A DNA stretch of 50,132 nucleotides. Origin: an uncultured Gammaproteobacteria bacterium (lineage in GTDB: Bacteria > Pseudomonadota > Gammaproteobacteria > Pseudomonadales > Pseudohongiellaceae). The stretch is taken from assembly GCA_963976555.1 (NCBI GenBank), contig CAXBLN010000001.1, positions 1-50,132 on the forward strand. Direction: 5' to 3'. Made by a program: the position numbers and the translations under genes. Position 1 is the stretch's first letter, and every line of letters starts with the position of its first letter. The notes beneath the pieces are model-generated. The model was not told where the DNA came from, did not search any database, and saw only the letters and a program-made list of their open reading frames with translations. Below are positions 30,892-33,487 of the stretch, in pieces.

Positions 30892-32121
30892 ATGAACGAG
30901 TTCTTCGATCTAAGTACTGTGACTTGGAGCCTGATTGGCTTCATGGTCCTGCTTATTGCTTATTTTCATGGCCCCAGCTATTCGGCGCAGACGGTTCGCA
31001 ATGCGCCGGCCATACTTACAAGTTTCGGCATATTCGGCACATTCCTTGGCATCGCTTTCGGTTTGATGCGGTTCGACAGCGCAGATATCGAGGCGAGTGT
31101 TCCACTTATGATCGATGGTCTCGGCGTTGCCGTTTGGTCTTCGATTGTTGGGATACTTGGCGCTTTAAGTATCAGGCTGCGAAATACTCTGATCTCGATA
31201 AGGCGCAGTATCGACGGCGAAGAGAAGCCAGCAACTGTCGCCGATCTTAATCGTTCTATCGAAGCACTCAACGTTAACCTTGAGCAACTGAGGGGGGAGA
31301 GCAAGGCCGACAGTCTTGCCCTTCTGAATTCGAATCGCGATTATCAACAAAAAATGGTTGCTGCAAATACCGACGCACTGACCAGTGCGCTCGCTACAGT
31401 GATGACTGAGTTCAATAGCCGTATCGAGGTTCAATACGGGGAAAACTTTCAGAAGTTTAACGAATCTCTCGGTCACCTTTTGAGCTGGCAGCAGAACTAT
31501 ACGAATCAGTTGGACGATATGTTGCGTGCCCAGAAGGCAAGTATCGAAGTAATAAGTCATGCCAGCCAATCCTATGAGCAGATGATCGTCCATTCGCAGA
31601 ACTTCAACAAAGTGGCCGAGTCCCTGGGTAATCTGCTTGGTGGTCTGGAGCAGCAGACTTCGAATCTGGAAGGTTATCTGTCGGGCTTGTCCGGACTGGT
31701 CGGTCAGGCATCGGAGGGATTGCCCGCGCTTGGCGACTATGTAAGTGAACTGACTCTAAAGCTGAGCGCTAGTATTGAGCAGAACAATGAAAGCCTCACG
31801 CAAGTGCTTGCGACGGCGGCGCGAGATATATCGGAGACGGTGGAGCAGGTTACGCAGAGTCTGGCCAACTCGGTGAATCAGGCGCATTCCGGCTTGGCCG
31901 AGCATGTCGAGGCTATGACCGATAAGACCGAGAAACAGATGCAATTGCTGGATCAGTCCATGGAAAAGGAACTTACGGCCGCCCTGCAGACATTTGGCTA
32001 TCAGCTGACAGCGCTGTCGGAGAAGTTCGTTAACGACTATGTGCCTCTTACTGACAGGCTGCGTGAATTGCTGCTTATGGCCGAGCAGCAGTCGGGCAAG
32101 CGTGCACAAACCTCCAAGTAG
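30892..32121 (+). CDS. MotA/ExbB/TolQ-type proton-channel protein with a long C-terminal coiled-coil tail (ZorA-like architecture)
   Basis: Three N-terminal TM helices: WSLIGFMVLLIAYF, ILTSFGIFGTFLGIAFGL, GLGVAVWSSIVGILGALSI. They are followed by about 300 aa of Q/E/L/S/N-rich helical sequence. Confidence 0.65.
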   Translation: MNEFFDLSTVTWSLIGFMVLLIAYFHGPSYSAQTVRNAPAILTSFGIFGTFLGIAFGLMRFDSADIEASVPLMIDGLGVAVWSSIVGILGALSIRLRNTLISIRRSIDGEEKPATVADLNRSIEALNVNLEQLRGESKADSLALLNSNRDYQQKMVAANTDALTSALATVMTEFNSRIEVQYGENFQKFNESLGHLLSWQQNYTNQLDDMLRAQKASIEVISHASQSYEQMIVHSQNFNKVAESLGNLLGGLEQQTSNLEGYLSGLSGLVGQASEGLPALGDYVSELTLKLSASIEQNNESLTQVLATAARDISETVEQVTQSLANSVNQAHSGLAEHVEAMTDKTEKQMQLLDQSMEKELTAALQTFGYQLTALSEKFVNDYVPLTDRLRELLLMAEQQSGKRAQTSK

Positions 32122-32127
32122 AAAAAT

Positions 32128-32841
32128 ATGCTGGAAGCAAAACTCGAACAAGAAATAGAGCAAGAATCGGAAGAGCATTGGATAGCGGTTAGCGATTTGA
32201 TGAGTGGCCTGATGATGCTCTTCCTGCTGATTGCTGTGATGTATCTGGTTATAGTCGAGCGCAAGAACGATGAGATCGAACGGGTTGTCGTTCTCTATGA
32301 AGATCTTCGAGAAGAGCTGTACACCGATCTGCTCGCCGAGTTCGTCGACGACCTGCCGCTTTGGGGAGCGGAGCTCGGGGAAGACCTAAAGTTTCGCTTT
32401 ACGAATACCAACTTACTTTTTGAAGAAGGGCAGTCTGACCTGAAGCTGGAATTCTCAAACATCCTTAGCGACTTTTTCCCACGCTATGTGGCAATACTCA
32501 CGTCTAAAGAATATCGCGACGATATACTCGAGCTTCGCATCGAAGGGCATACCTCCAGTTCTTGGTCATTCGCCGCCGACAGCGACGATGCCTATATGAG
32601 AAACATGGCGCTCTCGCAAGAACGTACGCGCACGACACTGGGCTTTCTCTTCGATCTGGAAGATGTGGCGCACGAGAAGACCTGGCTTAGAGAGCGTATG
32701 ACAGCGAATGGGCTGTCTTCCTCTCAGCTCATTCTGCGAGACGATGGGCTCGAGGATGAAGAACGCTCGCGTCGAGTTGAGTTCGTGGTTGTGACCGATG
32801 CCGAGACGCGTCTGTCGACTATTCTGGAAGAGATTCGCTAA
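32128..32841 (+). CDS. MotB/OmpA-type stator partner (ZorB-like architecture)
   Basis: Acidic N-terminus. A single TM helix carries an embedded Asp (WIAVSDLMSGLMMLFLLIAVMYL). The C-terminus is an OmpA-like peptidoglycan-binding domain (LRIEGHTSS ... NMALSQERTRTTL ... RRVEFVVV). There is a 6-nt gap after the upstream gene. Confidence 0.7.
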   Translation: MLEAKLEQEIEQESEEHWIAVSDLMSGLMMLFLLIAVMYLVIVERKNDEIERVVVLYEDLREELYTDLLAEFVDDLPLWGAELGEDLKFRFTNTNLLFEEGQSDLKLEFSNILSDFFPRYVAILTSKEYRDDILELRIEGHTSSSWSFAADSDDAYMRNMALSQERTRTTLGFLFDLEDVAHEKTWLRERMTANGLSSSQLILRDDGLEDEERSRRVEFVVVTDAETRLSTILEEIR

Positions 32842-32845
32842 GCCT

Positions 32846-33487
32846 GTGCAGTTACCCAATTTCATAGAATTTGAGCCCTTCAATGAACTGCGCGAGAAAA
32901 TCGGCACTAATGATTTGGGTTTCTTCGAGCTTTTCGATGCAGCGATTCATCTAACCGGCAGCGAACGCTCCGAGCTGGAGAATACTGGCATACTGCTTAA
33001 GTCGAATGAGTTCAGGGTGTTGCCAGATAAGACTCTAGCCATTAAGAATAGCAGGGTGCTTGCTTACATACCTGATGAGTCCTGGTATAGAAATCGTAGA
33101 GAATACCCAACCTTTCATCTCGCCTGGTGTGCGCAGCTTGAAACGCTGTCAAGAGAGCAGCCTGCGCAGGACTTTCTTGTCACAACGAAGATCGCCGATG
33201 ACTACAACGTGTTGAAGATTCGAGGCAGTGGTGAAGTGTCGCTATCCGAACAGGGGCTTGTCGTCTGCAAGCATTGCCTGCATGCCCTGCGTTACCGAGA
33301 CTACGATGAATTTAGAAACAGACGCAGAGGCTACAGTCAAAAGGTCTTGAATGATTTTAGGCTGAAAGATTTCTATCGGTTCTATCAGCAGTATCCACTC
33401 AGCTTCGGGAAATCGGCACTGACGGAGAGGGCAGCTGGGACTGCAGTCAAAGGCCCGCCTGCGGACAGCACAGAAAACAGCGGCTGA
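32846..33487 (+). CDS. Hypothetical protein with a Cys/His signature; third gene of the MotAB-like cassette
   Basis: The ORF is open from 32798. ATG 32798 would overlap the upstream gene by 44 nt, while GTG 32846 lies 4 nt after its stop. Features: FHLAWC ... CKHCLH and a basic Arg/Tyr-rich stretch. I recognise no enzymatic motif. Confidence 0.6.
   Translation: MQLPNFIEFEPFNELREKIGTNDLGFFELFDAAIHLTGSERSELENTGILLKSNEFRVLPDKTLAIKNSRVLAYIPDESWYRNRREYPTFHLAWCAQLETLSREQPAQDFLVTTKIADDYNVLKIRGSGEVSLSEQGLVVCKHCLHALRYRDYDEFRNRRRGYSQKVLNDFRLKDFYRFYQQYPLSFGKSALTERAAGTAVKGPPADSTENSG

Follow-up and report, generated by a model that had tools for sequence, protein, structure and literature searches.

The locus described here raises the question of what a Zorya-like membrane motor does when the nuclease that should act on its signal is missing. 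It lies in a 50,132-nt stretch of DNA (the window, whose numbering is used below) from an uncultured gammaproteobacterium of the Pseudohongiellaceae (assembly GCA_963976555.1, contig CAXBLN010000001.1), where three open reading frames (ORFs) on one strand occupy positions 30892–33487. An earlier inspection of the letters and ORFs, referred to here as the sequence-only reading, had described three codirectional genes, the first MotA-like with a helical tail and the second MotB/OmpA-like, and had proposed an undescribed module with the core of a Zorya system. The ORFs are present as described. The first two are zorA and zorB of type II, and the third is a zorE reduced to its N-terminal domain. 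We classify the locus as a nuclease-less variant of Zorya II, which is neither a new class nor an ordinary member, because its ZorA, its ZorB, the zinc-binding DUF8245 domain of its ZorE, and its operon layout are those of type II, whereas the HNH endonuclease that originally defined ZorE is absent.

ZorA and ZorB carry the hallmarks of a type II motor

Both motor proteins match the type II profiles of PADLOC over their full length. Residues 9–400 of ZorA align with positions 10–419 of the 420-position ZorA2 hidden Markov model (HMM) PDLC00637 (E = 3e-89), and residues 7–235 of ZorB align with ZorB2 PDLC00641 (E = 4.5e-87). The three-gene assignment is not a chance result, since profile E-values are as low as 1e-89. 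Matches of ZorA and ZorB to the PADLOC profiles of type III Zorya are weak (1.4e-08 and 1.7e-04, respectively). A canonical plasmid-borne Zorya II and a nuclease-less trio from Reinekea match the same ZorA2 and ZorB2 HMMs.

The best solved relatives of ZorA and ZorB are the two chains of PDB code 8VVI (PMC11890865), in which the type II ZorA5B2 complex of Sulfuricurvum kujiense was solved by cryo-EM. ZorA aligns with chain 8vvi_F in three collinear segments (E = 5.1e-38). ZorB aligns with chain 8vvi_A (E = 5.5e-46), with which it has the peptidoglycan-binding motifs IEGHTSS, SQERT, and RVEF in common, and the alignment places Asp-23 on the critical Asp-21. The profile and structure-based matches bear out the ZorA/ZorB core that had been proposed for the first two genes.

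Hydropathy analysis assigns three transmembrane segments to ZorA (residues 7–25, 41–59, and 76–94), one to ZorB (residues 25–43), and none to the product of gene 3, in agreement with the topology read earlier for the first two proteins. In ZorA, the three helices form a MotA/ExbB-like stator shell and are followed by a helical cytoplasmic tail of ∼310 residues. The sequence-only reading had listed the shortness of this tail as a difference from Zorya. However, ZorA of S. kujiense has 378 residues in 8VVI, of which residues 100–378 form the tail, and ZorA of a Psychrobacter plasmid system has 363 residues, so that a short tail is a trait of type II and not an anomaly. A size far below that of type I is characteristic of type II complexes (PMC11890865).

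Residues Thr-43, Ser-44, Thr-50, Ser-83, and Ser-84 of ZorA are invariant across 40 genomes. ZorB consists of a single transmembrane helix with Asp-23 and a C-terminal OmpA-like peptidoglycan-binding domain, and all motifs read earlier in gene 2 are found: WIAVSD(23)LMSG, IEGH(141)TSS, SQERT, and RRVEF(215). Across 38 genomes, D23, E139-G-H141-T, S163-Q, and RRVEF215 are invariant. ZorB-II of E. coli needs His-141, Ser-143, Arg-215, and Arg-230 for defense (PMC11890865); the first three have counterparts at identical numbers in the window protein, in which Thr-142 is likewise present. ZorAB thus has every sequence hallmark of a type II ZorA5B2 ion-driven stator, and its ion-pathway and peptidoglycan-binding residues are intact. 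The ratio of nonsynonymous to synonymous substitution rates (dN/dS) is 0.13 for ZorA, 0.10 for ZorB, and 0.10 for ZorE, with 0.035–0.28 for flanking genes; all three genes of the cassette are under purifying selection.

Gene 3 encodes a ZorE reduced to DUF8245

The sequence-only reading had recognized no Zorya effector next to the motor. This holds for the HNH nuclease, but not for gene 3 as such, which is a relative of ZorE. Its product matches PADLOC ZorE2 (PDLC00643; E = 5.4e-32) at positions 3–181 of 282 alone and NCBIfam ZorE (E = 7e-10) at positions 65–171 of 358 alone. The Pfam set that we searched, which did not include PF26739, gave no match, and homologues of gene 3 carry PF26739 (DUF8245) and no other domain. 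In E. coli, ZorE is built from an N-terminal DUF8245 domain, a central HNHc domain, and at times a C-terminal extension, and His-90 of the N-terminal zinc site and His-226 of the HNH domain are both essential (PMC13192584, a 2026 preprint). Gene 3 is the N-terminal DUF8245 domain of ZorE, followed by a disordered C-terminal tail, and has lost the HNH nuclease.

The point at which the two forms part is sharply defined in a joint alignment. Long ZorE proteins continue past a common YPxxPL boundary into the series CxxC..HHxNG..NLxxLCxxCH..HxHM, whereas gene 3 and all short forms end there. For long homologues, the NCBIfam ZorE match reaches position ∼257 and is accompanied by secondary HNH matches. 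A strict HNH pattern was found in 53 of 73 long representatives and in none of 62 short ones. The nuclease is not encoded separately either: when nine ZorE HNH domains were searched by tblastn against all frames of the window and of 52 related loci, the best E-value was 0.85, which argues against a split gene.

The His-Cys3 zinc site of gene 3 (His-91, Cys-95, Cys-141, and Cys-144) is invariant over 133 sequences, short and long, and corresponds to the zinc site holding His-90 in E. coli. Of two AlphaFold 2 models, one was poor (predicted local distance difference test score, pLDDT, of 59.6), and the second was confident (pLDDT 90.7). A Foldseek search with the latter returned no significant neighbor in the PDB (best E = 1.1) or BFVD (best E = 0.2), and no alternative nuclease fold was recognizable in this comparison. 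A literature search returned no description of a nuclease-less ZorE; one preprint kept just those ZorE proteins “containing a recognisable endonuclease domain” (PMC13192584).

Short ZorE proteins form a clade of their own

Close homologues of gene 3 with a length of 190–216 amino acids number more than 120. An exhaustive search of 1.84 billion representatives yielded 372 relatives, which fall into two length classes; with members of the long class, the query aligned to residues ∼1–185 in every case. The top 150 cluster representatives included 62 short and 73 long forms. In a neighbor-joining tree of the common domain, 58 of 69 short forms, that of the window among them, are united in one all-short clade. 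The many homologues of the same length, their common clade, and the low dN/dS of zorE argue that gene 3 is not a truncation artifact.

The short clade lacks a surface that is >90% conserved in the long forms (YIRD at residues 74–77, RYV at 109–111, Gly-118, and Phe-120). It keeps the N-terminal helix, Asp-61, Thr-63, Lys-67, Arg-70, and the zinc site. Every short form sampled sits after a ZorA-like and a ZorB-like gene, and the order zorA-zorB-zorE is kept in >50 loci. In distant trios with a short ZorE, identity to the window proteins is 42–45% for ZorA, 51–59% for ZorB, and 35–39% for ZorE.

Some long ZorE proteins bear extra modules C-terminal of the HNH domain (P0237, 515 aa; P0204, 382 aa; P0147 and P0180, 369–371 aa). 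One protein among them shows an SprT-like metalloprotease signature (E = 1e-4), and one shows a weak match to the C terminus of type I ZorC (E = 3e-4). The C terminus of ZorE appears to be modular, with gains as well as loss of the HNH domain.

The module is inherited at one site and repeatedly lost from it

The flanks of the window are up to 97% identical to metagenome-assembled genomes of Pseudohongiellaceae. A scan of species-representative genomes baited with ZorE, which is biased toward genomes holding this gene, yielded 46 loci of the Pseudohongiellaceae type with the short ZorE, all at one constant site (40 intact, five decayed, and one cut by a contig end). Upstream of the site are genes for a 288-aa secreted protein (u1), two DUF6644 proteins, SURF1, and a cytochrome-c-like protein; downstream are those for an M20 peptidase, a DUF1232 protein, a CDP-alcohol phosphatidyltransferase, and others. 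When correlations were based solely on identity to the window, their coefficients were weak, and an all-against-all Mantel test was used in their place. The trio and its flanks diverge in step between loci (Pearson 0.70 for protein distances, Mantel p = 0.001), with mean distances of 0.278 and 0.281, respectively. In the Pseudohongiellaceae, the trio is site-stable, vertically inherited, and not mobile.

The ZorE-baited scan suggested a core-genome locus, a view that was abandoned after a metagenome scan baited with u1, which is unbiased for the trio. Scoring was confined to loci in which synteny was conserved and the sequence reached far enough downstream; of these, ∼11–12 held an intact trio, 14 a decayed one, and ∼15 none. 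Of the syntenic sites that could be scored, about two thirds (∼29 of ∼40) are not intact. In the empty sites, u1 adjoins the peptidase gene or an unrelated 177-aa ORF. No fewer than five distinct lesions occur: a deletion from about codon 128 of ZorA to about codon 183 of ZorB, loss of the whole of ZorA and most of ZorB, a ZorA94-ZorE111 fusion, a ZorB211-ZorE104 deletion, and isolated, stop-riddled ZorA fragments as well as point pseudogenes. The sequence-only reading had named a syntenic core locus that is never associated with defense islands as an argument against a defense role. The site is indeed syntenic, set among housekeeping genes, and immobile, but with so many empty and decayed sites it is not core.

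ZorA relics of ∼110 codons (residues ∼56–170) with 38–48% identity and two to four stops lie between u1 and the peptidase gene at several loci (Table 1). They have the appearance of ancient remnants of the system at sites that are otherwise empty.

Full-length tblastn alignments suggested that ZorE might have a role independent of ZorAB. This was rejected, because in loci from which ZorAB is deleted the zorE ORF is interrupted at 80–129 aa, has substitutions at invariant residues, and shows dN/dS values of up to 3.4. The three genes therefore make up one functional unit, which either stays under selection or disappears entirely. The module can be dispensed with and is of conditional benefit, as would be expected of a defense system.

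Comparison with known Zorya systems and other stators

Type II Zorya (E. coli ATCC 8739; S. kujiense, 8VVI; PMC11890865) has the same zorA-zorB-zorE order as the window, a similarly compact ZorA (378–409 aa) with three transmembrane helices and a helical tail, a ZorB with the same transmembrane aspartate (Asp-23 for Asp-21) and OmpA-like His-141, Ser-143, and Arg-215, and a ZorE with the same zinc-binding N-terminal DUF8245; the proteins are found by the same HMMs (PDLC00637, PDLC00641, and PDLC00643). In contrast to these systems, the ZorE of the window is devoid of the entire HNHc domain (profile positions ∼182–282), the C-terminal extension, and the YIRD/RYV surface, its proteins score below the NCBIfam equivalog cut-offs, and the locus is chromosomal, site-stable, and outside defense islands. 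Location in a defense island or as mobile cargo is typical of such systems but does not define them, and presence at the fixed site does vary. Standard defense annotators would call the locus Zorya type II. The earlier claim of an undescribed module accordingly gives way to that of a variant of a described system.

The Zorya II of the Psychrobacter sp. plasmid pA17BP1 (NZ_MN657036.1) matches that of the window in its layout of three genes and in its best PADLOC models, with a ZorA of 363 aa and a ZorB of 223 aa. However, its ZorE (291 aa) covers the full profile (positions 2–278 of 282) including the HNH domain, whereas that of the window is nuclease-less, and the system resides on a 7.4-kb mobilizable plasmid, whereas the window system is immobile. 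In type III Zorya (ZorA-ZorB-ZorF-ZorG; PADLOC, PMC8565338), a ZorAB motor is combined with soluble partners without a recognizable nuclease domain. Although these partners (DUF3348 and DUF2894) are unrelated to gene 3, type III provides a precedent for outputs that are non-nucleolytic or of unknown nature.

The type II identity of ZorA, ZorB, and ZorE is in itself that of an already known kind of system. What deserves attention is the loss of the effector domain across a large clade of ZorE, the vertical inheritance of the system at a fixed site, and the natural series of intact, decayed, and empty versions of that site.

Proposed mechanism and alternative explanations

The HNH nuclease is the known killing device of Zorya II-type systems. 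The output of the window system must differ from HNH nicking, because gene 3 has no HNH site, and the dispensability and repeated loss of the module fit an accessory, conditionally useful function. We consider it probable that the locus encodes a chromosomal, type II Zorya-derived system whose zorE lacks the HNH domain and whose defense output is non-nucleolytic or acts in trans. By analogy with characterized Zorya II, peptidoglycan-anchored ZorAB would sense a perturbation of the envelope, typically phage entry. The ion path would then open, and flow through the Asp-23 pathway would drive the ZorA tail, whose signal would recruit or activate the soluble DUF8245 protein. ZorAB is known to recruit ZorE to the membrane upon infection (PMC11890865). 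The output itself would most likely consist of DNA binding by the zinc domain, or occlusion, at the site of entry, or else a nuclease or repair factor of the host, with its gene elsewhere, would be recruited. An anti-phage activity would be expected to depend on ion flow, peptidoglycan binding, and ZorE; what the analysis shows is the conservation of residues and the joint decay of the three genes.

A number of observations weigh against a defense role of this kind. NCBIfam gives the same names to all three proteins, yet every score is under the equivalog cut-off (118 bits against 700 for ZorA2 and 212 against 400 for ZorB2). Binding of DNA by DUF8245 is hypothetical, since its fold is without a structural neighbor, and the YIRD/RYV surface lost from the short clade is the one predicted in E. 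coli to face DNA. We know of no nuclease-less ZorE system with a known phage phenotype. The genomic setting is not defense-like: none of the flanking housekeeping genes has a PADLOC match, the trio diverges alongside its flanks at an equal rate, and in several other genera it holds a fixed position behind oxaloacetate decarboxylase genes, which is again a housekeeping context. Phage records and IMG/VR contigs hold no copy of the short-ZorE system; plasmids gave no DNA match, and their sole protein matches are two long, HNH-bearing ZorE proteins at 27% identity. Finally, since His-226 of the HNH domain is required for defense in E. coli (PMC13192584), the canonical mechanism cannot operate in the window system.

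Of the competing explanations, the most probable is that the trio, whether it has ceased to be an anti-phage system in these lineages or never was one, is a domesticated sensor with a host function, such as sensing envelope integrity or ion-motive force, in which DUF8245 serves as a non-destructive signaling or DNA-binding output without anti-phage activity. We regard this as unlikely, although much of the genomic evidence suits it. Inheritance amid housekeeping genes is strictly vertical and site-stable over ∼40 species, the trio diverges as far as its flanks and co-varies with them, its dN/dS values lie within the housekeeping range, and no copy is on a mobile element. The destructive domain is gone across the whole clade, and in at least four other lineages the trio lies codirectionally behind a Na+-pumping oxaloacetate decarboxylase, with some copies beside BolA. 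However, the adjacency to either gene is correlative, and all characterized ZorAB systems are anti-phage. Moreover, at least five independent events have deleted or pseudogenized the trio in close relatives and ∼29 of ∼40 sites are not intact; such a pattern is more in keeping with an accessory function of conditional use than with housekeeping. A cryptic nuclease, in which DUF8245 itself provides the catalytic site (for instance through Asp-61, Thr-63, Lys-67, and Arg-70 beside the zinc site), is rather improbable. These four residues are ≥86% conserved in short and long forms, the short clade has long been retained under selection, and the substitution H90A in the equivalent zinc site abolishes defense in E. 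coli (PMC13192584). On the other hand, Foldseek finds no nuclease fold, Pfam and NCBIfam give no nuclease match, and the need for His-226 in E. coli means that DUF8245 alone is insufficient there (PMC13192584).

Two further explanations are refuted by the data and retain very little probability. An ordinary, canonical Zorya II, with an HNH part that was overlooked, lost through a recent mutation or a fault in the assembly, or placed in a separate gene, might be suspected because PADLOC and NCBIfam call gene 3 ZorE and because this gene ends 1 nt from a convergent one, as a truncated gene could. Against this stand the >120 homologues of equal length with a conserved C-terminal boundary, the large clade that the short forms make up, purifying selection on the gene, and the fact that no frame of the window or the 52 related loci yielded HNH-like coding sequence; the His and Asn residues around C141–H146 are conserved yet not invariant. 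Less credible still is a housekeeping stator of the Mot, Tol, Exb, or gliding type followed by an unrelated gene. Such a pair is suggested by weak Pfam matches, which are confined to OmpA and MotB_plug (0.027 for the latter), and by the best non-Zorya match in NCBIfam, to the MotB family (4.5e-07). MotAB, ExbBD, and TolQR share with the window pair the 5:2 ion-driven architecture, as expected from homology, and the transmembrane aspartate of the B subunit, and MotB also has an OmpA-like anchor. However, they have no long pentameric cytoplasmic tail, a feature that is specific to Zorya, and no ZorE partner, and their profiles score ∼80 orders of magnitude weaker than those of Zorya. The best PDB relatives are ZorAB, gene 3 is related to ZorE and always linked to the pair, and, as the sequence-only reading had observed, no flagellar, TolR/A/B-Pal, or TonB/ExbD genes adjoin the pair.

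It is possible, and we propose it tentatively, that a large and old Zorya II-type clade works free of nuclease, with the DUF8245 zinc domain as the sole output of ZorAB, in either a non-destructive defense or a domesticated sensor of envelope or ion status. The second option would fit the fixed position behind a Na+ pump in several genera. If the first holds, Zorya defense could be non-destructive and, for example, block or mark incoming DNA or recruit host factors. A ZorE made of DUF8245 alone separates the motor-coupling, perhaps DNA-coupling, part of the protein from the part that cuts, and offers a natural tool for dissecting the signaling between ZorAB and its effector. With intact, decayed, and empty versions of one site, the Pseudohongiellaceae provide a natural experiment on what such a system costs and what it brings, and this series shows that ZorE is of no value without ZorAB. 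For annotation, the consequence is that many systems incapable of the published nickase mechanism will be tagged as Zorya II.

Organization of the cassette

The coordinates of the cassette and of other features are listed in Table 1. The three genes are arranged as an operon on one strand, with gaps of 6 and 4 nt and a terminator upstream. Gene 3 had been said to abut or overlap gene 2. Abutment holds for the GTG codon at 32846, 4 nt past the zorB stop, whereas overlap (44 nt) results just from an alternative ATG at 32798, which would give a product of 229 aa. GTG 32846 is most likely the true start, because the N termini of homologues (MxLPDF in 20 of 23) and the gene-caller version of the protein (P0001, 213 aa) agree on it. 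The convergent gene placed 1 nt downstream is confirmed as the M20 peptidase ORF, which ends at 33489.

An intrinsic terminator had been placed at 30813–30834. RNA folding gives a hairpin at 30810–30833 with a 9-bp stem and a 6-nt loop and, behind it, a run of U (dG = -13.4 kcal/mol, z = -2.16), and this terminator separates the cassette from transcription arriving from upstream. A consensus terminator scanner did not report the hairpin and U tract, probably because its greedy stem extension swallowed the U tract, and negatives of that scanner need caution.

Table 1. Positions of the cassette, its neighbors, and related features at other loci (L numbers)
Feature	Sequence	Position	Strand	Description	Basis or remark
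zorA (type II)	Window	30892–32121	+	409 aa	PADLOC ZorA2, 8vvi_F
zorB (type II)	Window	32128–32841	+	237 aa, gap of 6 nt after zorA	PADLOC ZorB2, 8vvi_A
Nuclease-less zorE	Window	32846–33487	+	213 aa from GTG 32846	PADLOC ZorE2 (partial), DUF8245/PF26739
Intrinsic terminator	Window	30810–30834	+	Terminator of upstream 288-aa gene (stop 30781)	RNA fold
u1	Window	29915–30781	+	288 aa	
Cluster upstream of u1	Window	26027–29585	-	Four genes, see text	
ZorA relics	L065	11062–11394			
ZorA relics	L067	3624–3980			
ZorA relics	L070, L071, L074				
oad-linked short-ZorE trio	L045	4636–10501			
oad-linked short-ZorE trios	L048, L049, L051			Same layout as L045	
oad-linked short-ZorE trio	L054	2497–8645			
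oad-linked short-ZorE trio	L058	476–4901			
BolA-family neighbor	L057	3452–3763			
BolA-family neighbor	L058	4935–5300			
BolA-family neighbor	L059	2471–2836			
∼177-aa ORF	L020	10589–11122			No Pfam match
∼177-aa ORF	24 other loci (e.g. L012, L028, L097, L108, L112)				No Pfam match
u1 paralogue	L083	10743–11777			
u1 paralogue	L096	10841–11833			
RelE-like/HTH pair	L036	11865–12459		Toxin and antitoxin genes	

Neighboring genes

In Reinekea, Saccharospirillum, Aestuariirhabdus, and one unassigned lineage, the trio lies directly downstream of, and codirectional with, the genes of a Na+-translocating oxaloacetate decarboxylase (oadG/A/B), and Dus is found upstream of these oad-linked trios. 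The trio may be co-transcribed with the sodium pump, and the linkage hints at Na+ coupling of that ZorAB. A gene of the BolA family stands behind that for DUF8245, either directly or one gene further on, in two divergent lineages with the short form.

The site of the trio in the Pseudohongiellaceae is not a defense hotspot. DNA inserted there encodes a nitronate monooxygenase, a glyoxalase, a DUF4440 protein, a u1 paralogue, and, in one genome, a RelE-like toxin with a helix-turn-helix (HTH)/MqsA-like antitoxin between ZorE and the peptidase gene. An ORF of ∼177 aa (MSxxxQFDAGYNxxEDRILLRITN...) is found ∼25 nt after ZorE in one sub-lineage of the family and is absent from the window. It was rejected as a fourth gene of the system, because it also occurs right after u1 in loci without the trio and is an independent neighbor.

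The u1 protein has an N terminus resembling a signal peptide, a median identity of 78%, and no Pfam or PADLOC match. It was likewise rejected as a part of the system, since the terminator lies between u1 and the cassette and u1 is absent from distant trios. Paralogues of u1 occupy the site of the trio in some genomes. Further upstream, on the opposite strand, lies a cluster that is syntenic across the family and may serve in respiration or oxidase assembly. It encodes two DUF6644 membrane proteins in tandem, a member of the SURF1 family, and a protein of 479 aa in which a weak cytochrome-c motif is found.

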